Origin: an uncultured bacterium
GTDB lineage: Bacteria; CAYJRR01
Direction: 5' to 3'
Assembly (NCBI GenBank): GCA_964372275.1
Contig: CAYJRR010000087.1
Coordinates: 1 to 19,347 of the forward strand
Length of the DNA stretch: 19,347 nt
Position numbers and translations under genes: made by a program. The notes beneath the pieces were generated by a model. That model did no database searches. It saw only the letters and a program-made list of their open reading frames with translations, and was not told the origin of the DNA. Every line of letters begins with the position of its first letter. The stretch's first letter is position 1. Of this stretch, positions 4,290 through 16,369 are shown piece by piece.

Positions 4290-4344
4290 GGCGCTCCGAT
4301 GAGCATCCGCGCCCGGGGCGGCAAGTGATAAGGTCGCGGCCCCG

Positions 4345-7014
4345 GTGGAACCGCGCCCGAAACTGTTCCTGATCGACGCCTACGCCTACGTCTTCCGCGC
4401 CTACCACGCACTGCCTCCGCTGGCGACCGCCAAGGGGGTGCCGACCGGAGCGACCTACGGGTTCATCACCGCGCTCCTGAAGATCCTCCGCGAGCACTCG
4501 CCCGACTACGTCGGCGTGGTGTGGGACGCGCCGGGGAAGGGGTTCCGCGAGGCGATCGACGCCAACTACAAGGCGAACCGGGGCGAGACCCCGGCCGATC
4601 TCCTGCCGCAGTTCGAGCAGGTGCGTCGCGTCACCGACGCCTTCTGCATTCCGCACGTCGAGGCGACCGGGTTCGAGGCCGACGACGTGATCGCCACCCT
4701 CACCCGCCAGGCGGTCGAGTCGGGGTGCGACGTGGTGATCGTCTCCGGGGACAAGGACCTGATGCAGCTCGTCTCCGACCGGGTCCGGCTCCTCGACGTC
4801 ATGCGGGACAAGGTCTTCGACCCGGCGGCGGTGGAGGAGAAGTTTGGCGTCCCGCCGGCGCGCGTCGCCGACTACCTCTCGCTCACCGGCGACAGCTCGG
4901 ACAACGTGCCGGGCGTGGAGGGGATCGGACCGAAGTCGGCGGCGGCGCTCCTCCTCCGCTACGGAAGCCTCGATCGGGTGCTGGCCGAGCTCGATCGGGT
5001 GGAGCCGGAGAAGGTACGCCACAAGATCGAAGCGAGCCGCGCGAACCTCGACCTTTCTCGAAAGCTGGTGGCGCTGTCGTACGACGCGCCGGTCCACTTC
5101 GACCGCGAACGGATGACGGCACGCTCCCCCGACGCGGAGCGGCTGCGGCCGCTCCTGGTGGAGCTCGAGTTTTCGCGGCTGATCCCGCAGTTCGCTGCGG
5201 TGAGCCGGGAGACGCGCGCCAAGGCGGCGGCCGGCTACCGTGCGGTGCTCGACGAAGCGGCGCTCGCCGAGATGCGCGACGTGCTGTCGCGCGCGCCGAG
5301 GATCGCCTTCGCGCTGCTGACCGACGGGCACGACCTCGCCGGCCCGACACTGGTCGGTATTGCGCTCGCCGGGTCGGAGGCGGAGGCCTGGTACGTGCCG
5401 CTCGGGCACCGGTACCTCGGCAGTCCGGCGCAGCTCCCGGCGACCACCGTCCTCGCCGCGCTCCGGGACCTGCTTGGCGATCCGGCCAGGCGGAAGGCGA
5501 CCCACGACCTCAAGAAGACGCTCCACGTCCTCTCCCGCTTCGGCGTGGCGATCGAAGGCCCGGTCTCGGACACGATGATCGGCGCCTATCTCCTGAACGC
5601 CGAGCGCGCATCGCCGTCGGTCGCCTCGATCGCGCAGGAGCTGCTCGACCACACCACCGTCCCGTTGGAGGAGTTCGCCGGAAAGGGGGCGAAGCAGCTC
5701 CCGTTCGAGCAGACGTCGGTCGAGCCGGCGACCGAGTGGGCGGCGGAGCAGGCCCGCGTCACGCTCCTGGGCGCGGGGGCGGTCGAGGCGCGGCTCGACG
5801 AGATTCCGTCGCTCGCCCGGATCTACCGCGAGGTCGAGCTGCCGCTCACCCGGGTGCTGGTGGAGATGGAGCGGACCGGGATCGCGCTCGACGTGGAGCA
5901 CCTGCGGCGGCTGTCGCAGGAGTACGACCGCGAGATCCGCGATCTGGAACGGGCGATCTTCGAGGCGGCGGGGACCGAGTTCAACATCGCCTCGCCGGTG
6001 CAGCTGCGTCAGGTGCTGTTCGATCGGCTCGGACTCCCGGTGATCAAGAAGACCAAGACCGGTCCGTCGACCGACCAGGACGTGTTGGAGAAGCTAAAGC
6101 CCAAGCATCCGGTGCCGAACCTGATCCTGCACCACCGCTCCCGGTGCAAGCTGAAGAGCACCTACGTCGACGCGCTGCCGCGCCTCCTCGGCCCCGACGG
6201 CCGGCTGCACACCACCTTCCACCAGACGGTCGCCGCGACCGGGCGGCTCTCCTCGACCGATCCGAACCTGCAGAACATCCCGATCCGGACCGAGGAAGGC
6301 CGGAAGATCCGCCGCGCCTTCGTCGCCGCCCCCGGCCACGCCTTCGTCGCCGCCGACTATTCGCAGATGGAGCTCCGGCTGGTGGCCGCCTACTCGGGGG
6401 AGAAGGCGATGATCGACGCCTTCCTCGCCGGCGAGGACATCCACGCCGCGACGGCCCGCACCGTCTTCGGAAAGGCGGACGACGATTCGAGGCGCGCCGC
6501 CAAGGCGGTGAACTTCGGGATCCTCTACGGGCAGGGCGGGTGGGGGCTCGCGCAGACCCTGGGGATCGAGCCGGCCGAGGCGGAGCGCTACATCGAGGCC
6601 TACTTCGAGCGCTACCCGAAGCTGCGCGCCTTCCTCGACGGAGTGCTGGCCCACGCCGACCGCCACGGGTGGGTGGAGACCCCGCTCGGCCGGCGGCGGA
6701 CGCTCCCCGATCTCCACTCGAAGAACCCGCAGCTCCGCGATGCCGCGCGGCGCATGGCGATCAACCACCCGATCCAGGGGGCGGCCGCCGACCTGATGAA
6801 GCTGGCGATGCTGGCCGCGCACCGGCTCCTCGCCGCCGAGGGCCTGCGCGCGCGGATGATCCTGCAGATCCACGACGAACTGGTCTTCGAAGCCCCGGAG
6901 GACGAGGTCGAGCGCGTGCAGGCGCTCGCCCGCGAGGCGATGGAAGGGGTCGCCACGCTCGCCGTGCCGCTCAAGGTCGACCTCGGCGTCGGCCGCGACT
7001 GGAGCGAGGTCTGA
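4345..7014 (+). CDS. polA: DNA polymerase I
   Basis: 889 aa. The 5'-3' exonuclease N-terminus (KLFLIDAYAYVFRAYHA) and polymerase motifs A/B/C (DYSQMELR, RRAAKAVNFGILYG, QIHDELVF) are present. The GTG start is the first start codon after an in-frame TAA. The stop is TGA. Confidence 0.95.
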   Translation: MEPRPKLFLIDAYAYVFRAYHALPPLATAKGVPTGATYGFITALLKILREHSPDYVGVVWDAPGKGFREAIDANYKANRGETPADLLPQFEQVRRVTDAFCIPHVEATGFEADDVIATLTRQAVESGCDVVIVSGDKDLMQLVSDRVRLLDVMRDKVFDPAAVEEKFGVPPARVADYLSLTGDSSDNVPGVEGIGPKSAAALLLRYGSLDRVLAELDRVEPEKVRHKIEASRANLDLSRKLVALSYDAPVHFDRERMTARSPDAERLRPLLVELEFSRLIPQFAAVSRETRAKAAAGYRAVLDEAALAEMRDVLSRAPRIAFALLTDGHDLAGPTLVGIALAGSEAEAWYVPLGHRYLGSPAQLPATTVLAALRDLLGDPARRKATHDLKKTLHVLSRFGVAIEGPVSDTMIGAYLLNAERASPSVASIAQELLDHTTVPLEEFAGKGAKQLPFEQTSVEPATEWAAEQARVTLLGAGAVEARLDEIPSLARIYREVELPLTRVLVEMERTGIALDVEHLRRLSQEYDREIRDLERAIFEAAGTEFNIASPVQLRQVLFDRLGLPVIKKTKTGPSTDQDVLEKLKPKHPVPNLILHHRSRCKLKSTYVDALPRLLGPDGRLHTTFHQTVAATGRLSSTDPNLQNIPIRTEEGRKIRRAFVAAPGHAFVAADYSQMELRLVAAYSGEKAMIDAFLAGEDIHAATARTVFGKADDDSRRAAKAVNFGILYGQGGWGLAQTLGIEPAEAERYIEAYFERYPKLRAFLDGVLAHADRHGWVETPLGRRRTLPDLHSKNPQLRDAARRMAINHPIQGAAADLMKLAMLAAHRLLAAEGLRARMILQIHDELVFEAPEDEVERVQALAREAMEGVATLAVPLKVDLGVGRDWSEV

Positions 7015-8618: not shown

Positions 8619-9440
8619 CTATTGCAACAGGCGGAGCGCCGACTTCGACTGGGTGTTGGCCTGCATCAGCGTCGCGATCCCGGCGCTCTGCCGCACCTGC
8701 AGCTGCGTCAGCAGCGCCGCTTCGACGGCGAAGTCGGCGTCCCGGATCCGGCTTTCGGCGGCGGCGGTGCTCTCGATGCTGCTGCCGATCGTCGAGATGG
8801 TGGTCGTCATCCGGTTTGCCGTCGCGCCGAACCGTCCGCGCGCCGCGTTCACCTGGGAGATCGCGCCGTCGATCGCCCCCACCGCCGCGCTGGCGTTGGC
8901 GGCGGTGTCCACCCCGGCCCCCGCGAGCCCCAGCGCCGTCACCGTCGCGTTCGCCGTCTGCACGGCGATCTGGTCGGTGCCGCCGGTCCCCGTCCCGACC
9001 TGGAAGGTGACGCTGGCGGTCTGGTTGAGGAGGTTGACGCCGTTGAAGTTGGTCGTGCCGGCGACCCGCCCGACCTCCTGCGACAACGAGCTGAACTCCT
9101 GCTGCAGGGCCGCGCGCTCGCTGGTTCCGAGCGTGCCGTTCATCGACTGGATGGCGAGCTCCCGCATCCGGCCGAGCATCGACCCGACCTCGTTGAGCGC
9201 GCCGTCGGCGGTGCTCGTCAGCGAGATGGCGTCGTTGGCGTTCCGTTGCGCCTGTTGGAGCGAGCGCAGGTTCGCCCGCATCTTCTCCGAGATCGCCAAC
9301 CCCGCCGCGTCGTCCGCGGCGGTGGCGATCCGAAGTCCGCTCGAGAGGCGGCTGAACGTTCCTTGGAGCTGCCGATTCGTCTGCTGGAGGAACCTCTGCG
9401 CCGAGATGCTGCCGAGACCACTGCTTGCGTTGATGGCCAT
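8619..9440 (-). CDS. fliC: Flagellin (short form lacking the variable D2/D3 domains)
   Basis: 273 aa from the ATG at 9440 (MAINASSGLGS...). The canonical N-terminus ...RLSSGLRIATAADDAAGLAISEKMRANLRSLQQAQRNANDAISL... and C-terminus ...RGRFGATANRMTTTIST...ESRIRDADFAVEAALLTQLQVRQSAGIATLMQANTQSKSALRLLQ are present. The TAG stop is conserved. The track ORF extends 17 codons upstream to an earlier ATG, which I consider less likely. Confidence 0.9.
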   Translation of the reverse strand: MAINASSGLGSISAQRFLQQTNRQLQGTFSRLSSGLRIATAADDAAGLAISEKMRANLRSLQQAQRNANDAISLTSTADGALNEVGSMLGRMRELAIQSMNGTLGTSERAALQQEFSSLSQEVGRVAGTTNFNGVNLLNQTASVTFQVGTGTGGTDQIAVQTANATVTALGLAGAGVDTAANASAAVGAIDGAISQVNAARGRFGATANRMTTTISTIGSSIESTAAAESRIRDADFAVEAALLTQLQVRQSAGIATLMQANTQSKSALRLLQ

Positions 9441-9559
9441 TTCTGGCCCTTCCCTTCTCCCCCTTTTTAGGAAAAGAGACGAAAGAATCATACCACCGCC
9501 GCCTCCCCCGCGGAAGTAGCGGCTATGGAGGGCGGAAATCCTAAGTTATTACGAAAGGA

Positions 9560-9700
9560 TTCGAACCGAGTCGGATCCGAGCCGTACCGGTATCGGTATG
9601 CGACCCGATCCGATCCGGCCGGCGGATTTCGGATCGGATCGGTTCCGATCGGCTCGGATCGGATACCGATACCGATACCGATACCGATCGGATCGGCCTC
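9560..9700. repeat. GATC-dense short-tandem-repeat region forming a long imperfect palindrome centred on CCGGCCGG. It contains (ATACCG)4 at 9663..9686 and CGGAT/CGATC pentamer runs
   Basis: Read from the sequence: ...ccggtatcggtatgcgacccgatccgatccggccggcggatttcggatcggatcggttccgatcggctcggatcggataccgataccgataccgataccgatcggatcgg... There are about 9 GATC sites in about 130 bp. It lies between the DsbA-like gene stop (9702) and the flagellin start (9440). Confidence 0.8.
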
Positions 9701-9701
9701 T

Positions 9702-10799
9702 CTAGCTGCCGGCGTTCTTGAGCTCGCGCTCGATCAGCCGGCTGATCTCGGGGACGTTCGCCCCCGGCACCATCCATCCGTTCACGAAGAAGGTCGGCGT
9801 CGAGTTCACGCCGTAGGCGTCGGCGTCGGCCATGTCCTTCTTCACCTCGTCGACCCGCTTCGGGTCGGCCACGCAGGCGTCGAACTTCGCCAGGTCGAGC
9901 TTCAAGAGCTCCGCGTGCGCCCGCAGATCGGAGGCCTTCATCGCCGACTGGTTCTTGAAGACCGCCTCGTGGAACTCCCAGTACTTCCCCTGGTCGCGCG
10001 CGCAGCCCGCCGCCACCGACGCCGGCAGCGCGTCGGGGTGTTTCCCCATCAGCGGGTAGTCGCGATAGACGAGCTTCACCTTCCCCTCGTACTGCTTCAG
10101 GACCTCCGGGAGCCGGTTCTCCGCCGTCCTGCAGGCCGGGCACTGGAAGTCGGAGAACTCGACGATCGTCACCGGCGCGGAGTCCGACCCCTTCATCGGG
10201 TCGTCGTCGACGGAGACCTCCACCCGCGGCGGATCGGGCGGCGTGAGGTGGAACTTCACGTTCGACGACTCGATCAGCTTGGAGATGTAGGCACCGCGCG
10301 CGTCCTGCTTGGCGCGCTGCTCGAGGCCGGTCTTGATCTGCTCCTTCACCTCGTCGAACTTGGGGAACGGATCGCCGGGCTTCGCCGACTTCTGCCGGGA
10401 GCTGTAGAACATCTGCACCTCGGCGTCGGTGACCGCCTTGGCCGTCGACTCGACCTTCTTCTCCAGGAACTCGTCCATCGTCAGGCCCTCTTTCTGGGCC
10501 TCGCGCGTGATCAGCCGCTTCGCGATCTCGTTCTGCACCCACCCCTGCTTGGTCTCGAAGATGTCGCGGCGCGCTCCGAAGATCGCGCCGGCGGTCGCCT
10601 GGTCGACTTCGGTCCCGGTGATCTTGATCCCGTCGGCCTCCGCAACGACCCCGGATCCCAACGGATCGCACGACGAGGCCATCGCCCCTTCGGCCCCCGC
10701 TCCGCCCCCCGCTCCGGCGTTGGGGTTGGCGCACGCGGCAGCGGCGAGGGCGATGATCCCGGCAAGGGCGAGACGGCTCGAGCGTACGGAAACGCGCAT
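9702..10799 (-). CDS. DsbA-family thiol:disulfide oxidoreductase lipoprotein (N-terminal SurA-N/chaperone-like region plus thioredoxin domain)
   Basis: 365 aa from ATG 10799. The track ORF 9702..11906 is a mirror-frame extension upstream of this ATG. A lipoprotein signal MRVSVRSSRLALAGIIALAAAAC (lipobox AAAC) is present. The thioredoxin active site FQCPAC is followed by DsbA-like C-terminal helices ...NSTPTFFVNG... GGAGGA lies 7 nt upstream of the ATG. Confidence 0.85.
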   Translation of the reverse strand: MRVSVRSSRLALAGIIALAAAACANPNAGAGGGAGAEGAMASSCDPLGSGVVAEADGIKITGTEVDQATAGAIFGARRDIFETKQGWVQNEIAKRLITREAQKEGLTMDEFLEKKVESTAKAVTDAEVQMFYSSRQKSAKPGDPFPKFDEVKEQIKTGLEQRAKQDARGAYISKLIESSNVKFHLTPPDPPRVEVSVDDDPMKGSDSAPVTIVEFSDFQCPACRTAENRLPEVLKQYEGKVKLVYRDYPLMGKHPDALPASVAAGCARDQGKYWEFHEAVFKNQSAMKASDLRAHAELLKLDLAKFDACVADPKRVDEVKKDMADADAYGVNSTPTFFVNGWMVPGANVPEISRLIERELKNAGS

Positions 10800-10890
10800 G
10801 AATCCTCCGGAGTGGCGGATCGGGCGATGGCCGGCGACCCCCCGTTTGTCGCGCGCCAAGCTAGCATAATTGCCTGATCCGGCAACCACT

Positions 10891-10937: not shown

Positions 10938-11645
10938 ATGACCTCCACCGCGAATAAGCCGGATCCCGCGCCGTCCAAGTCGGCGACAGGCGATTCGCCA
11001 GGAACGAAGGGAGGTTCGAGCACGATCGGGGAGGCGCCCCCCTCCGATCCGAAGGAGACCGACGACGAACGGGCTTTGGTCTCGAGCCTGGTCCGGAAGA
11101 CGAGGGCCGGCGACCGTGAGGCGTACCGGCAGCTGGTCGAGCGCTACCAGAAGCGCGTCTACGCGGTGCTGTTCGGGATGCTGCGCAGCCGCGAAGACGC
11201 GATGGAGGTTTCGCAGGAGGTCTTCGTCAAGGTCTTCACCCGGATCGGGGAGTTCGAGGAGAAGTCGTCGTTCTACACCTGGATCTACCGGGTGGCGGTG
11301 AACCTGGCGATCGACTTTCGGCGCCGCGAGTGGAAAAAGGTGCACGCGGTGTTCGACGAGTCGATCGAGGACCAGGGGATCGAAGAGGCGACCTTCTACC
11401 GTCCGGACCGGACGACCCCCGAGCAGGCGATGCAGTCGCGGGAGTTGGGGGAGCAGATCCGGGCGGCGCTGGAGACCCTCCCCGAGGAGCAGCGCGCGGT
11501 CTTGGTGATGAGGGAAGTGGACGGGATGAGCTACCAGGAGATGGCCGACGTCATGCGCTGCTCGATCGGGACGATCATGAGCCGGCTGTTCTACGCGCGG
11601 AAGAAGATGCAGGCTTCGCTGAAGGCCCTGGAGAGAAAGTCGTGA
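10938..11645 (+). CDS. ECF-family RNA polymerase sigma factor (sigma-24/RpoE-like)
   Basis: 235 aa. Sigma-2 region ...YRQLVERYQKRVYAVLFGMLRSREDAMEVSQEVFVKVFTRIGEF...YTWIYRVAVNLAIDFRRRE. Sigma-4 region EQRAVLVMREVDGMSYQEMADVMRCSIGTIMSRLFYARKKM. There is a roughly 50-aa low-complexity N-terminal extension before these, so the true start could lie downstream. GAGGGG lies 9 nt upstream of ATG 10938. Confidence 0.9.
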   Translation: MTSTANKPDPAPSKSATGDSPGTKGGSSTIGEAPPSDPKETDDERALVSSLVRKTRAGDREAYRQLVERYQKRVYAVLFGMLRSREDAMEVSQEVFVKVFTRIGEFEEKSSFYTWIYRVAVNLAIDFRRREWKKVHAVFDESIEDQGIEEATFYRPDRTTPEQAMQSRELGEQIRAALETLPEEQRAVLVMREVDGMSYQEMADVMRCSIGTIMSRLFYARKKMQASLKALERKS

Positions 11646-12163
11646 GCTGCGAGCAGGTCCAGGAGTGGATCCCCAAGGTGGTCGACCGCGAGGCGCTCGC
11701 GTGGGAGCGGGCGGCGGTCGAGGAGCACCTCGCCGGCTGCGCGGCGTGCGCGGAGCTGCGCGCCGAGCTCGTCGAGATCGGGGCCCTCGTGCGCGGGCCG
11801 ATCCTCGCGGCGGCCGACGCGGCCGACTTCTCGGGACTGTGGCCGGCCGTGTCGGCCGGGATCGACCGCGAGCTCGCGGCGGCACGGCGTGAGCGGGTGG
11901 CCTCACGCGGATGGGACGCCCTCCTGGCGCCGCTGTCCCGGTGGGTCGCGGGCGGACTGGTCGCAGCCGCCGCGGCCGCCGCGGTCTGGATCGCGCCGCC
12001 GGCGCCCCACCTCTTCCCGGCCGACCTCCGCGTCGAGGTGAGCGAGGTCGAAGGCGGGGCCGACCACGACGTGATGATCTACGAGTCGCAGGACGAAAAC
12101 GTCACCTTCATCCTGGTGATGCCCAAGTACGAGGCAGATCACAGGAGAGGAGCACCGATATGA
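11642..12163 (+). CDS. Anti-sigma factor, zinc-binding (ZAS) type, single-pass membrane
   Basis: GTG start at 11642 overlaps the sigma TGA (GTGA). MSCEQVQEW...EEHLAGCAACAELRAEL carries the HxxxCxxC ZAS motif. A TM helix WVAGGLVAAAAAAAVWIAPP is present. The longer track ORF 11330..12163 is the same frame extended upstream. Confidence 0.8.
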   Translation: MSCEQVQEWIPKVVDREALAWERAAVEEHLAGCAACAELRAELVEIGALVRGPILAAADAADFSGLWPAVSAGIDRELAAARRERVASRGWDALLAPLSRWVAGGLVAAAAAAAVWIAPPAPHLFPADLRVEVSEVEGGADHDVMIYESQDENVTFILVMPKYEADHRRGAPI

Positions 12164-12702
12164 TTCCGGGGGCGCGAGCGAAGCGGGTCGGTCTGTTGGG
12201 GCGGGCGGTGGTCGGGGCGGTGATCGCCCTCTCGCTCGCCGTCGCCGCGTCGGCGCGCGCGGCCGATCCGACCGAGGCCGACGTGCGCGTGCGCGTCATC
12301 CACGCCTCCAACGCCGGCGGCAAGTCGCGGATCGACCGGAGCGTCCGCGATCTCGACAAATACCTGAAGCCGTTCAACTACGACCGCTGGCGGCAGGTGA
12401 TCGACCAGACGTTGCACCTGGGCGTCTCGGATACCCAGGGGATCGGCCTGCTGTCGGGGAAGAACCTGAACGCCACGCTGGTGGCGCTGACCAAGGAGAA
12501 GGCGACGATCCGTCTGCTCCTCGTCGGACAGACCGGCCAGATGCTCGACACCACCGTCTCCGCCGGACCGCACCGCCTCTTCTTCATCGCCGGTCCGCGC
12601 TACGAAGACGGCGTCCTGTTCATCGCCATCGAGCCGCATTACGACCCGGAGAAGGTCGTGCCCGACGCGAACGTGTCGGACAGCTCGAAGCGGCGGGAGT
12701 AG
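12160..12702 (+). CDS. Periplasmic hypothetical protein co-transcribed with the ECF sigma/anti-sigma pair
   Basis: 180 aa. ATG at 12160 overlaps the anti-sigma TGA (ATGA). An AGGAGAGGAG ribosome-binding site lies upstream. Signal peptide MIPGARAKRVGLLGRAVVGAVIALSLAVAASARA-AD. I recognise no domain. Confidence 0.7.
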   Translation: MIPGARAKRVGLLGRAVVGAVIALSLAVAASARAADPTEADVRVRVIHASNAGGKSRIDRSVRDLDKYLKPFNYDRWRQVIDQTLHLGVSDTQGIGLLSGKNLNATLVALTKEKATIRLLLVGQTGQMLDTTVSAGPHRLFFIAGPRYEDGVLFIAIEPHYDPEKVVPDANVSDSSKRRE

Positions 12703-12742
12703 GAACGGTTCGGGGGCGCGGCCGCGCGCCGCGTCCGGTTCC
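12702..12742. terminator. GC-rich imperfect hairpin GGAACGG...CCGGTTCC enclosing a perfect 12-bp palindrome GCGCGGCCGCGC (12716..12727). Candidate terminator or REP-like element
   Basis: Starts 1 nt after the TAG stop of the periplasmic gene. No U-tract follows. Confidence 0.3.
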
Positions 12743-12921
12743 ACCGGCCCATTCGCGCCCCACCTCGTCCGGATTCCGATCGCGGAAGGTTCGATCGCGC
12801 GGACGCCGCGCGCGCCGCGGCATCGCGTCGCCGCAGACTTGGCGCGTCCTCGCCCCCGGCACCGGCGTTGCTCCCTCCCCGCGCGCTTCCACGCGCCTCG
12901 AATCCACGGGAGGGACCCTCG

Positions 12922-13518
12922 ATGAAGACCGTCGCCGAACACGCGATTGCGATCCCCAGCCATCTCGAGCTTCCGAGCGCCTTGCTCGTCACCAAGTTCC
13001 TCCGCGCCGACCGCGGCGGTCTGCTCCGGCTCGACGATGCGCGAAACCTGCTTCGCCGCAGCTTCGAGCTCTACCGGTCGACGTACGATCTCCGCATCCA
13101 CGCCTGGTCGTTCCTCCCGTCGCGCGTCGACCTGGTGGTCGGACTTCCGTGCGAAGGCACCGTCAAGGAGGCGCTGGAGAAGGTCTTCGGCTACTACACC
13201 CGCCGGTTCAACGCGCGCTACGGGAAGGACGGCGCGCTGTTCCGAACCAAGTTCGTCAAGCGGCTGCTGGTGGGCCAACCGGCGATCGCCGCCGCCGTCG
13301 AGCGCGTCAGCCGGATGCCGGAGACGAGTCGCTGCCGGTGGGAGCCCGGGCGCGAGTGCTGGTCGAGCGCCGGCTTCTACCGGCTCGGACGTGAAGACCG
13401 GATCCTGACGCCGCTCCCGGGCGTCGCGCGTCCCTGGGGGCGGCGGCGCGAGGAGGCGGGCCGGATGGCGGCCTCGTTCGAGGAACCGACCGCGCCGGAG
13501 TACGCTCCCGGTCGGTGA
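12922..13518 (+). CDS. IS200/IS605-like (TnpA_REP/RAYT-like) protein that has lost the HuH histidines and the catalytic Tyr; domesticated or inactive transposase derivative
   Basis: 198 aa from the ATG at 12922; the track ORF begins 18 codons further upstream at 12868. LRIHAWSFLPSRVDLVV corresponds to RAYT FEINAWVVLPEHMHCIW, with HMH replaced by RVD. LPCEGTVKEALEKVFGYYTRRF corresponds to LPEGDDDFSSRWREIKKQF. ALFRTKFVKRLL corresponds to IWQPRFWEHAIR. No Tyr is present in the region equivalent to DYIYINPV. The assignment is by motif memory and is moderately confident. Confidence 0.5.
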   Translation: MKTVAEHAIAIPSHLELPSALLVTKFLRADRGGLLRLDDARNLLRRSFELYRSTYDLRIHAWSFLPSRVDLVVGLPCEGTVKEALEKVFGYYTRRFNARYGKDGALFRTKFVKRLLVGQPAIAAAVERVSRMPETSRCRWEPGRECWSSAGFYRLGREDRILTPLPGVARPWGRRREEAGRMAASFEEPTAPEYAPGR

Positions 13519-15074
13519 CCGTCGACTCCGGGATGGGCGCGCGGGGTGGGCCGGATCCGCACCCGGCGGAAGGGGTTCTCGCGCGGGCCGTCTTCCTGCG
13601 CGCGCTCGGCCTCGTCTACGCCGCCGCCTTCGTCTCGCTGTGGGTGCAGGTTCACGGACTGATCGGAGAACGGGGGATCGCCCCCGCGTCGGAGTTGCTG
13701 GCGGTCGCCCACGAGCGCTTCGGCGCCGGCGCGGCCTGGCGGCTGCCGACGGTCTTCTGGCTCTCGTCCGGCGACGTCGCGATCCACCTCGTCTGCGCCG
13801 CCGGGACGGCGTGCGGCGCGCTGCTCCTGCTCGGGCGCGCGCCGGGACCGGCGGCGATCGCCGCGTGGGGGCTCTACCTCTCGCTCGTGGGGGTCGGGGA
13901 CGTCTTCCTGAGTTACCAGTGGGACGCGCTGCTCCTGGAGGCCGGTCTGCTCGCATGCCTCGACGCGCCCTGGCGGCTCCGGCCGGGCGGCGTCGAGCGC
14001 GCGCCCTCGAGACTGTCGCGCGGACTGCTTCGTCTGCTGCTGTTCCGCCTGATGTTCGCCTCCGGCGCGGTGAAGCTCCTGAGCGGCGACCCGTCGTGGC
14101 GGAACCTCTCCGCCCTCGAGTTCCACTACTGGACCCAGCCGCTCCCCCATCTCGCGAGCTGGTTCGCGCATCGGCTGCCGGGCGCGGTGCACGCGATCTC
14201 GACGTTCGCGATGTTCGCCGTCGAGCTGGTCGTCCCGTTCTTCTACGTCGGACCCCGCCGCGCGCGCCGCTACGCTGCCGTGGCGACGGCCGGTCTCCAG
14301 GTCGCCGTCGCCGCGACCGGGAACTACGGCTTCTTCAATCTGCTGACGGCGGCGCTCTGCGTGACGCTGCTCGACGACGACGAACTTCGCCGCGTCTTGC
14401 CGGCGCGGCTCGTCGAAGCGCTCGTGCCCCGGTCGGTCGAGCCGGCGCGGGCGCTCCCCCGCGGCGTCGCCGGGTTCGTCGGAGGGTTCCTCGGCGCCGC
14501 CGGTCTGGCGGCGTTCGCCGGCGGGCTCGGCGTTCCCGTTCCACGACCGCTCTCGATTCCGCGTGAGCTTCTCCGACCGACGATGTCGGCGAACGCCTAC
14601 GGACTGTTCGCGGTGATGACGCGCGAGCGGCCGGAGATCGTGGTCGAAGGGAGCGACGACGGCCGGACGTGGCGGAGCTACGACTTCCGGTGGAAACCGG
14701 GCCCGGTGGAGCGCGCGCCGCGCCTGGCGCCGCTGCACCTGCCGCGTCTCGACTGGCAGATGTGGTTCGCGGCGCTCTCCGCCTGCCGGGACGAGCCGTG
14801 GTTCCTCCAGTTCGAGCGGGCGCTGCTCGAGGGCCGGCCCGAGGTGTTGGGGCTCCTGCGCGACGCGCCGTCGACGGCGCCGGAGTCGTCCGCCGGGCAG
14901 ACCCGCGCCTCCGCGACGCGACCGCCGCGATTCGTCCGCTCGACGCTCTACCGCTACCGCTTCACCACCGCGGCGGAACGCCGGGACGGCGGCGCCTGGT
15001 GGTCGCGCGAAGAGGCGGCCCCCTACTGTCCGACGCTGACGCTGGTCGACGGCCGGCTCACCCGCGTTCCGTGA
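13515..15074 (+). CDS. Lipase maturation factor (LMF1/DUF1222) family integral membrane protein
   Basis: 519 aa. FLRALGLVYAAAFVSLWVQVHGLIGERGI, YQWDALLLEAGLLACLDAP, GNYGFFNLLTAALCVTLLDD, YGLFAVMTRERPEIVVEGSDDGRTWRSYDFRWKPG, LDWQMWFAAL and LYRYRFT match the LMF family. A GTG at 13515 overlaps the upstream TGA (GTGA). The ATG at 13533 is an alternative start. Confidence 0.85.
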   Translation: MTVDSGMGARGGPDPHPAEGVLARAVFLRALGLVYAAAFVSLWVQVHGLIGERGIAPASELLAVAHERFGAGAAWRLPTVFWLSSGDVAIHLVCAAGTACGALLLLGRAPGPAAIAAWGLYLSLVGVGDVFLSYQWDALLLEAGLLACLDAPWRLRPGGVERAPSRLSRGLLRLLLFRLMFASGAVKLLSGDPSWRNLSALEFHYWTQPLPHLASWFAHRLPGAVHAISTFAMFAVELVVPFFYVGPRRARRYAAVATAGLQVAVAATGNYGFFNLLTAALCVTLLDDDELRRVLPARLVEALVPRSVEPARALPRGVAGFVGGFLGAAGLAAFAGGLGVPVPRPLSIPRELLRPTMSANAYGLFAVMTRERPEIVVEGSDDGRTWRSYDFRWKPGPVERAPRLAPLHLPRLDWQMWFAALSACRDEPWFLQFERALLEGRPEVLGLLRDAPSTAPESSAGQTRASATRPPRFVRSTLYRYRFTTAAERRDGGAWWSREEAAPYCPTLTLVDGRLTRVP

Positions 15075-15167
15075 TGGAATGCAGGGGGGCGGCAGGGGGC
15101 CGGGGAGGTCCCCGGGAAGCGCCCAGGCGCGAAACGTTCCCCGTAGAAGCCCGAAGGGTGGACAGCG

Positions 15168-15497
15168 ATGACGAGCCCGAATCGCGACGCGTCACCTCCG
15201 CCACCGGACGGTTGGGGTCTGGGGATGGTGGTCGGGGGATGGGTCCTGGCGGTGGCCGGCGGGATCCTCTCGATGCTGGCACTGGGCCTGGGCGACACCG
15301 CCGCGATGATCGTCCTCGGTCTCGCGGTGCTTTCATCGGGAACGCTGTTCGTCACCGGCAGTCTCCGGCTTGCGCGAAACCTGCAGTGGCCCGCCGCCGT
15401 CGGGGTGGCCGGTGGAGTCGTCCAGGTCCTAGCCCTCCTGGCCGCGGCGCTCGCCTGGGTGGCGGTTCTCGCCATCGCCGGAAGCCCCTACAAGTGA
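15168..15497 (+). CDS. Small hypothetical membrane protein (3 predicted TM helices)
   Basis: 109 aa, GC3-rich and hydrophobic. Its 3' end overlaps the convergent PspC-domain gene by 69 nt, so one of the two 3' ends may be mis-called. Confidence 0.4.
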   Translation: MTSPNRDASPPPPDGWGLGMVVGGWVLAVAGGILSMLALGLGDTAAMIVLGLAVLSSGTLFVTGSLRLARNLQWPAAVGVAGGVVQVLALLAAALAWVAVLAIAGSPYK

Positions 15498-15683
15498 CCG
15501 GTCCTCCGTCGGCATCACCATCCAGAGAACCAGGTACGTCAGGATCCCCGGAAATGCCGCCGATGTGACCGAGAGGACGACGTAGAGGATCCGCACCAGG
15601 GTCGGATCCCATCCCAGGCTGTCGGCGATCCCGCCACAAACCCCGGCGAGCATCCGGTCTCGGGTCGATCGATGGAGGGCCAT
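15429..15683 (-). CDS. PspC-domain protein (phage-shock protein C family)
   Basis: 84 aa. DRMLAGVCGGIADSLGWDPTLVRILYVVLSVTSAAFPGILTYLVLWMVMPTED is a canonical PspC domain. Confidence 0.75.
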   Translation of the reverse strand: MALHRSTRDRMLAGVCGGIADSLGWDPTLVRILYVVLSVTSAAFPGILTYLVLWMVMPTEDRSLVGASGDGENRHPGERRGQEG

Positions 15684-15738: not shown

Positions 15739-16209
15739 TCAGCCGCTCTCTCCGACCTTCGAGCCGGCGTTCCAAATCTCCGTGGAGACGAGTCGGCCCC
15801 GCTCGTCGAAGATCGACCAGGCGCCGTCCTTCTTGCCGTCGACGTAGGTCCCGCGCTCCTCGATCTCGTAGTCGTCGCGCCAGCGCGTGTACGATCCGTG
15901 CTTCACGCGGACACCGTCGACCGTCTTGTAGCAGTAGCGCTCCGCCCCGGCGACCGGGGGGGCCGCGCCGTCGAAGAGCGCCGTTCCGGCCGGACAGCCG
16001 GTCCCGATGCGCACCCATCCCGGGCGGTGCCGGCGAAGCAGCTCGTCCACCCAGGCGAGCGGACGCTCGGGATCCACCTCCGCGGGGCATGCCGGGGCAC
16101 CGGCGTCGGATGCGTCGTGCCGGTCGCCCCCGGCGGCGGCGTCGAGGTCCGGCGCCGCGCGTGCGACCGGCGCCATCGACACGAGGGCGACAAGTGCGAT
16201 GGTCCTCAT
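15739..16209 (-). CDS. Secreted MORN-repeat-like hypothetical protein
   Basis: 156 aa from the ATG at 16209 (MRTIALVALVSMAPVARA signal peptide). C-terminal YxxGxxxGxW-type repeats (GTYVDGKKDGAWSIFDERGRLVSTEIWNAG). The track ORF extends upstream in the same frame to 16296. Confidence 0.55.
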   Translation of the reverse strand: MRTIALVALVSMAPVARAAPDLDAAAGGDRHDASDAGAPACPAEVDPERPLAWVDELLRRHRPGWVRIGTGCPAGTALFDGAAPPVAGAERYCYKTVDGVRVKHGSYTRWRDDYEIEERGTYVDGKKDGAWSIFDERGRLVSTEIWNAGSKVGESG

Positions 16210-16369
16210 AGAAGAGGGCGCCGCGCAGCAATCTCCGCGCCAGGCAACTCGCGTCGGAATCCGGCCACTTCGCCGCGCGCTCGCGACGCGGGACACGCGC
16301 GTCCGGTTTCCAGATGCCCGGATCGCCTCGTCGCGGCGAGGCGAACAGGGGCCCCCGTGGCGGTTCCCG

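Follow-up and report, generated by a model that had tools for sequence, protein, structure and literature searches.

The window analysed here is a 19,347-nucleotide stretch of chromosomal DNA (19 kb, 70% G+C) from an uncultured bacterium, and our subject is an open reading frame (ORF) on its forward strand at 12922..13518, together with the gene that follows it on the same strand at 13515..15074. The ORF is preceded by a Shine-Dalgarno sequence at 12908..12915 (+), GGGAGGGA, read directly from the sequence; it begins with ATG, ends with TGA at 13516..13518 and specifies 198 amino acids (aa). The following gene encodes a polytopic membrane protein of the LMF1 (lipase maturation factor) family, and upstream lies an operon for an extracytoplasmic function (ECF) sigma factor, its anti-sigma factor and a secreted protein. 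We find that ORF 12922..13518 encodes a Y1 HUH-fold protein of the type found in the repetitive extragenic palindromic (REP)-associated tyrosine transposases (RAYTs), in which the catalytic residues have been lost. We call this the HUH-like protein. The locus upstream of its gene is conserved in relatives of the host, while the LMF1 gene downstream is peculiar to this genome.

The HUH-like ORF has a strong coding signal by codon-position G+C content (0.85–0.93 at third positions, GC3, and about 0.4–0.6 at second positions, GC2). Its product contains all three motifs in which a reading of the window from its letters alone (the sequence-only reading) had recognized an IS200/RAYT signature: IHAWSFLP at residues 59–66, LPxEG (here LPCEG) at 75–79 and LFRTKF at 106–111. 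The core of the protein comprises residues ~19–165, and the last ~35 residues form a lineage-specific tail of low model confidence. With this tail the product exceeds the 165–182 aa typical of its homologues, and the codon-position composition is atypical there. An AlphaFold2 model, with the family alignment as input, has a predicted local distance difference test score (pLDDT) of 84.9, rising above 90 in the core. The secondary structure runs β-α-β-β-α-β-α (strand 19–27, helix 38–55, strands 58–65 and 68–75, helix 81–100, strand 107–117, helix 119–135), and the position of the tyrosine helix following the last strand is present, as in the HUH/RNA recognition motif (RRM)-like fold. When this model is compared with the PDB using Foldseek the best 30 matches are all Y1 transposases, the first being TnpA_REP of E. 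coli (4er8, E = 7.9e-7), and an hhalign comparison of the family with 30 intact relatives gives a probability of 99.86% (E = 3.2e-31 over 125 columns). The HUH fold proposed by the sequence-only reading, to be sought among Y1 and TnpA_REP structures, is borne out by both comparisons. A single-sequence search of the PDB sequences returned nucleoprotein matches only, which are spurious, and the family profile placed TnpA_REP and ISDra2 on top but with E-values of 0.39–1.4; we therefore base homology on hhalign and Foldseek. On these grounds ORF 12922..13518 encodes a Y1 HUH/RAYT-fold protein.

The tight family to which this protein belongs is small, with 24 sequences among 5.8 billion proteins and about 30 in a representative set of 1.84 billion. 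All 24 ORFs are intact, with lengths of 161–200 aa and 15 invariant columns that include the blocks DDARNLLRR and YYTRRFNARY. The non-catalytic motifs resembling those of RAYTs (DDARNLLRR, HAW, YYTRRFNARYGxxGxLFRTKF and E-P-W-S-S) are kept and are in part invariant, and every member is basic, with a net charge of +5 to +12. Matches to PF01797 are found for 16 of the 24, all weak (best E = 4.2e-6). By sequence the family is nearer to RAYTs than to IS200, since 20 members match the NCBIfam model REP_Tyr_transpos (best E = 2.1e-11) as against eight for transpos_IS200. At E ≤ 1e-3 the family profile recovers 6,473 relatives. PF01797 proteins make up the nearer ones, and one of these has a Bac_DnaA_C-like tail. 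There is no close match on plasmids, where the HUH-like protein finds only transposase genes at 27–29% identity.

The residues required for catalysis are gone from the window protein. The two histidines of the N-H-u-H-L motif align to R68 and D70, so that the HUH position reads R68-V69-D70; the tyrosine of the R-Y-I-H-x-N-P motif aligns to R128, and the asparagine of the same motif, which is the third metal ligand, to M132. Alignment with hhalign thus confirms the suggestion, made from the letters alone, that the HuH motif had become RVD and that the helix had lost its tyrosine. We extended the tally to 170 best representatives, 30 from the tight family and 140 more distant relatives. All 30 tight-family members are without the first histidine (R or K in 28) and without the tyrosine, which is replaced by R, H, E, W, A, G, Q or K; the second HuH position is occupied by D, E, H, S, V, M or Q. 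Among the more distant relatives HuH and Y are intact in 114 of 140. The other 26 have lost at least one catalytic residue, often by the same His-to-Arg change, and dead RAYT-like proteins therefore seem to be recurrent. The first histidine has changed to arginine independently in seven distant Y1_Tnp relatives (P0056, P0098, P0106, P0109, P0118, P0120 and P0158), most of which have no tyrosine either. Since the catalytic residues have been lost and yet the family is conserved, the view that this is a domesticated HUH protein rather than a transposase, as the sequence-only reading held, is supported. In previous surveys, sequences without the core motifs were removed as probably non-functional (Quentin et al. 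2018, PMC6006769), and the RAYTs described as domesticated have an intact catalytic centre (Bertels et al. 2017, PMC5581495). Our literature search found no paper giving a role to a dead Y1 protein.

The HUH-like gene appears to have a promoter of its own. A sigma-54-type element, GGCAC-N5-TTGCT with −24 GG and −12 GC, lies at 12858..12872 (+), 49 nt upstream of the ATG; the consensus for such promoters is TGGCAC-N5-TTGCW. The pattern GGYRY-N5-TTGCT has two matches in the window, where 0.12 would be expected per 19 kb. For comparison we used ten independent homologue loci (L001–L006, L008, L009, L014 and L015), leaving out L007, which comes from the window's own organism. The motif GG[CT][AG][CT]-N5-TTGCT occurs in every HUH-like locus (11 of 11), always at the same relative position, 28–50 nt before the start codon. 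Elsewhere in the homologue loci there is a single further match (L002, 9985..9999), and four LMF1 loci (35.8 kb) contain none. In L003 a gene has been inserted after that for the secreted protein (p180) that ends the ECF operon, and the motif has stayed with the HUH-like gene, indicating that the latter is a transcription unit in its own right. A scan of 12500..15400 for sigma-70 promoters and T-run terminators found neither. It is therefore well supported, from conservation of the motif, that the gene has its own putative sigma-54-type promoter.

Two further occurrences of this motif lie near pspC. The match in L002 is 14 nt upstream of a 224-aa gene adjoining pspC. The second match in the window, GGCGC-N5-TTGCT at 16227..16241 (−), is just upstream of a probable ATG at 16209, which starts a gene for a 185-aa signal-peptide protein followed by pspC (15429..15683, −). 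The Psp operons of E. coli are sigma-54 dependent.

Upstream of the promoter most relatives have a palindrome, GTCCGGA-N1-5-TCCGGAC. This is well formed in L001 (two copies), L003, L004, L005, L006 and L009, and the copies at L005 722–737 and L006 35–50 are perfect. The well-formed copies lie 62–131 nt upstream of the −24 GG, and ten of the 12 matches in 61.8 kb fall there; L014 and L015 have further copies, and L002 and L008 variant palindromes. The window has a degenerate version at 12767..12781 (no strand), GTCCGGATTCCGATC, with its centre 84 nt before the −24 element; this is a candidate enhancer or operator. The gap between p180 and the HUH-like gene is 140–220 nt in length and opens with G+C-rich hairpins, with T-runs after some of them (L002, L004 and L005). 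The leader regions do not align across the loci, so no consensus fold was obtained. The Shine-Dalgarno sequence at 12908..12915 has its complement in a pyrimidine tract at 12872..12879, immediately following the −12 element, and the same complementarity is found at the same position in L003, L004, L008, L009, L014 and L015. In folds of the individual sequences the Shine-Dalgarno is paired only when the folded stretch reaches upstream of the expected sigma-54 start. The tract should lie upstream of that start, and masking of the ribosome-binding site would therefore occur only on read-through from the ECF operon.

That operon begins with the ECF sigma factor gene at 10938..11645 (+; Pfam Sigma70_r2, Sigma70_r4_2 and Sigma70_ECF). 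It continues with the anti-sigma factor gene at 11642..12163 (+; zf-HC2, E = 4e-12), which overlaps the sigma stop by 4 nt, and ends with p180 at 12160..12702 (+), again with a 4-nt overlap with the preceding stop. The p180 product, a secreted protein of ~180 aa, has an N-terminal signal-like segment and 49 invariant columns over six orthologues, and it finds no match in Pfam, at NCBIfam level or in PADLOC. Orthologues of the sigma factor, 61–75% identical, are encoded upstream of every HUH-like homologue with enough flank, and the complete set of sigma, anti-sigma and p180 genes is upstream in ten of ten loci (the window, L001–L005, L008, L009, L014 and L015). Such a conserved locus in ten relatives is consistent with vertical descent of the HUH-like gene, as judged from gene order. 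Divergent from the operon is a DsbA-like thioredoxin gene at 9702..10820 (−; Thioredoxin_4, E = 8.6e-34; DSBA, E = 1.8e-22), the orthologue of which has the same position in L001, L002, L003 and L004, where the contigs reach far enough. Between its stop at 9702 and the start of a flagellin gene (8619..9545, −) there is a nested inverted repeat at 9568..9700, having 32-nt arms that are 84–88% complementary and contain ACCGAT/ATCGGT-like hexamers.

The lineage in which this locus is found is distant from named organisms. PolA of the window (4303..7014) has five relatives at 59–63% identity, whereas its identity to PolA of named organisms is at most 51% (metagenome-assembled genomes of Deferrisomatales and Desulfuromonadales). 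The lineage is therefore deep and uncultured. Searching 185,579 species-representative genomes with the profiles of the HUH-like protein and p180 gave no relative. The HUH-like family is confined to one deep, poorly sampled soil lineage.

The downstream gene, 13515..15074, presents a quite different picture. It has a clear coding signal by codon-position G+C, and its product matches Pfam LMF1 (PF06762; E = 4.6e-51, 173.6 bits against a gathering score of 27, residues 133–291) and LMF1_C (PF25179; E = 1.2e-42, 145.7 bits against 34.2, residues 359–506), so its earlier assignment as a 519-aa LMF-family protein holds. It aligns end to end with its homologues at ~50% identity with 100+ invariant columns. 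There are more than 7,786 homologues with E below 1e-30, the nearest non-self sequences being 52–54% identical and those with names coming from Myxococcota. The gene is an ordinary member of the very large bacterial LMF1 family. About a third of the 120 closest family proteins have an N-terminal DCC1-like thiol-disulfide oxidoreductase domain (PF04134). These fusions hint at a thiol-redox role of the bacterial LMF1 proteins, unrelated to the HUH protein; the earlier statement that no function is known for bacterial LMF homologues is fair on the whole, but the fusions in many of them provide a lead. The length of 519 aa assumes initiation at GTG 13515, and only then does the start overlap the HUH-like stop in the 4-nt GTGA. 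The homologues, whose N-termini are variable up to residue ~22, would fit an in-frame ATG at 13533 equally well. With the start ambiguous, the overlap and the translational coupling that the sequence-only reading deduced from it are possible rather than established. The stop/start overlap goes together with the C-terminal tail of the HUH-like protein that its homologues do not have.

Adjacency of the two genes is not conserved. The contigs of L004, L005 and L006 end before the downstream gene, leaving seven loci for comparison, and in none of the seven is LMF1 beside the HUH-like gene. The gene downstream encodes a tetratricopeptide repeat (TPR) protein in L001, a DUF5122 protein in L002 and a histidine kinase in L003, and it is a 165-aa ORF in L008 and a 303-aa ORF in L015; in these five loci it lies on the minus strand. 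In L009 (2518..2883) and L014 (2184..2564) the downstream genes, which share the strand of the HUH-like gene, are homologous to each other and encode a ~125-aa membrane protein with the motif RRxxEHPxR, which is absent from the window. A tblastn search across the homologue loci located LMF1 in L007 only, and neither of two contexts of LMF1 homologues that were inspected has an HUH-like gene, the neighbours there being unrelated. L002 and the window share PolA upstream and PspC-SRAP downstream, which indicates that LMF1 and a 109-aa ORF fill a variable slot. It is thus well supported that the adjacency is peculiar to this genome and that LMF1 is an accidental neighbour. Since the pairing is restricted to one genome the two genes are not a system, and the earlier proposal that they are has not survived the refutation that it had itself set, absence of the pair from other genomes.

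The inverted repeats that were thought to flank the pair are real, at about 12702..12742 and 15098..15116, but a likeness to REP elements is not upheld. The first lies in a G+C-rich region at 12703..12750 (+) directly after the p180 stop, and the fold of 12698..12750 (roughly 85% G+C) is equal to those of shuffled sequences (z = −0.24). The second forms a hairpin at 15081..15128 (+) directly after the LMF1 stop, with a core stem at 15095..15113; the fold of 15075..15135 has a minimum free energy of −31 kcal/mol (z = −3.06), a stability that none of 200 shuffles equalled, and no T-run follows it. The two have no sequence in common, and a search of the window allowing up to three mismatches found no more copies of either than chance would give. 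A repeat search of the whole window revealed no REP-like family. From the fold z-scores, the lack of repeats and the lack of mutual similarity, the two palindromes are not REP-like as far as the window shows. Most likely the first is not a REP but the point where the ECF operon transcript ends, and the second is probably the 3′ end of the HUH-like/LMF1 transcript. Scans with Rfam, for tRNA genes and with PADLOC gave no match.

Taken together, we consider that the HUH-like protein is a non-cleaving, nucleic-acid-binding derivative of a RAYT, vertically inherited, with LMF1 in a variable slot beside it, and we put the probability of this whole explanation at about 0.6. The ancestor would have been a RAYT, from which a small, lineage-restricted family arose by loss of both metal-binding histidines, the tyrosine and the third metal ligand, with the first histidine and the tyrosine each replaced mostly by arginine. 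The gene occupies a fixed chromosomal locus immediately after the ECF sigma/anti-sigma/secreted-protein operon. It would be transcribed alone from the conserved promoter, whose dependence on sigma-54 is presumed from its motif, with the upstream palindrome at enhancer distance in most relatives. The basic RAYT scaffold would be retained, and the protein would probably recognize one particular hairpin or palindrome, in DNA or RNA, and bind it without cleavage. It would in this way serve, with its expression controlled by sigma-54, as a regulator or as a chaperone of nucleic acids. LMF1 would have landed in the variable downstream slot in this genome only, where it is probably co-transcribed by read-through.

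A number of observations weigh against this explanation. Alone, the window protein has no match in Pfam, and it scores only 19.1 bits against REP_Tyr_transpos (E = 9.5e-4), where the cut-off is 80, so that it falls under every curated family threshold. Ratios of dN/dS calculated by the Nei-Gojobori method on nine loci are 0.35–1.1, a range that we judge uninformative: third positions are almost only G or C and pS reaches a plateau at ~0.5, which makes dN/dS unreliable here. The palindrome at 12767..12781 is a weak match, not above chance when taken alone, and this degeneracy, like the absence of an rpoN or activator gene from the 19-kb view, sets the window apart from known sigma-54 systems. 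The gene order shared with the ECF operon may have been inherited, with no functional link behind it. Binding without cleavage is the most likely activity, as suggested by the basic scaffold having been kept and by arginines taking the places of a metal ligand and the nucleophile, but its target is only a candidate.

Other explanations fit the data less well. The idea that the dead HUH protein and LMF1 are a dedicated system of two translationally coupled genes, with REP-like palindromes on either side, draws on their being adjacent on one strand with a possible 4-nt GTGA overlap, with no hairpin between them and a strong hairpin after LMF1. Yet LMF1 adjoins the HUH-like gene in none of the seven other lineages, two LMF1 contexts are without an HUH-like gene, more than 7,786 close LMF1 members stand against about 30 HUH-like proteins, the LMF1 start is ambiguous, and the palindromes are mutually unrelated and unrepeated. 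This proposal is largely refuted and we regard it as scarcely credible. It is also highly improbable that the HUH-like gene is a decaying RAYT relic without present function. The missing catalytic residues, the losses in 26 of 140 distant relatives and the view of Quentin et al. 2018 (PMC6006769) that motif-less Y1 sequences are probably non-functional would all suit a relic. A relic would not be expected, however, to have intact ORFs in 24+ sequences from organisms whose PolA is only about 60% identical, invariant long non-catalytic motifs, a confident AlphaFold2 model from the family alignment, a promoter kept in 11 of 11 loci and a strong GC3 coding signal.

Could the protein still be a nuclease or recombinase that uses other residues, for example D70 or H70 with another nucleophile? 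In 22 of the 30 tight-family members position 70 carries D, E or H, and Tyr91 and Tyr100 are invariant. But these two tyrosines are equally conserved in the intact relatives, where neither is the nucleophile, each member has lost three of the four active-site positions, some have S, V or M at position 70, and no repeated substrate-like elements were found in the window, and so we consider this very unlikely. A function as partner of the ECF sigma/anti-sigma/p180 envelope-signalling module, for instance in modulating its output, is more specific than our preferred explanation and overlaps with it. Among lineages whose PolA is about 60% identical, ten of ten loci retain the adjacency, and the other flank is different each time. 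However, the HUH-like gene is transcribed separately from the operon and with another sigma factor, hairpins or terminators lie between the two, L003 has a gene inserted there, and PolA, PspC and SRAP show by their wider synteny that inheritance of gene order is the general rule here. Such a partnership is possible, if doubtful.

In an unlikely elaboration, the most novel of the readings, a RAYT-REP pair would have been fossilized into a regulator-operator pair, in which the dead RAYT recognizes the single GTCCGGA..TCCGGAC palindrome as a former REP. The palindrome, which has the 3′ end of the ECF operon on one side and the sigma-54 promoter on the other, would be bound as single-stranded DNA or as RNA, and binding would set either the termination or stability of the ECF transcript or the expression of the HUH-like gene itself. 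If true, a catalytically dead bacterial Y1 HUH protein would for the first time have been assigned a role in the cell. Even without that elaboration, the non-cleaving RAYT derivative that we favour bears on how RAYTs are seen. They are regarded as domesticated transposases of unknown benefit in which the active site is intact, and the present clade goes further, as it is without all the catalytic residues and is still maintained at a fixed locus with a conserved sigma-54-type promoter. About a fifth of the nearest intact-type relatives show similar losses, and surveys have set such sequences aside as non-functional. The exciting claim of an HUH–LMF system does not hold; binding of a hairpin or other DNA without cleavage would, if true, provide a concrete cellular function for an overlooked branch of the HUH superfamily.

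How does the locus compare with known systems? RAYTs offer the closest parallel. TnpA_REP (4er8) has the same fold with the same order of secondary structure and is the best structural match, and the motifs F/LxxDDxR, HAW, YxRRFNxRYGxxGxLF and PWSS after the tyrosine helix are common to both. RAYTs are also described as chromosomal and vertically inherited (PMC5581495), and the window gene is chromosomal too, with inheritance that is apparently vertical. By sequence the closest proteins are those like class 2, subclass 2.1 of Quentin et al. 2018, some of which have a C-terminal Bac_DnaA_C or helix-turn-helix domain that the window protein does not. The window protein differs from RAYTs in having R68, D70, R128 and M132 for the HuH, Tyr and Asn residues, in the presence of the sigma-54-type promoter, and in that no REP- or REPIN-like repeats were detected in the window. 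With the IS200/IS605 TnpA proteins (PF01797; structures of IS608, ISDra2 and IS200) it has the HUH/RRM-like core in common (Foldseek E = 5e-5 to 6e-4), but it does not belong to an insertion sequence: the window shows no tnpB, no subterminal hairpins and no multiple copies, and the protein is without the catalytic residues. The promoter resembles those recognized by sigma-54 in having GG-N10-GC and flanking consensus bases in 11 of 11 loci, and it resembles enhancer-type sigma-54 promoters in having a palindrome 62–131 nt upstream in most of them. Lastly, the LMF1 product has both domains of the bacterial lipase maturation factor proteins in order, differing from many close homologues in being without their N-terminal DCC1-like domain.

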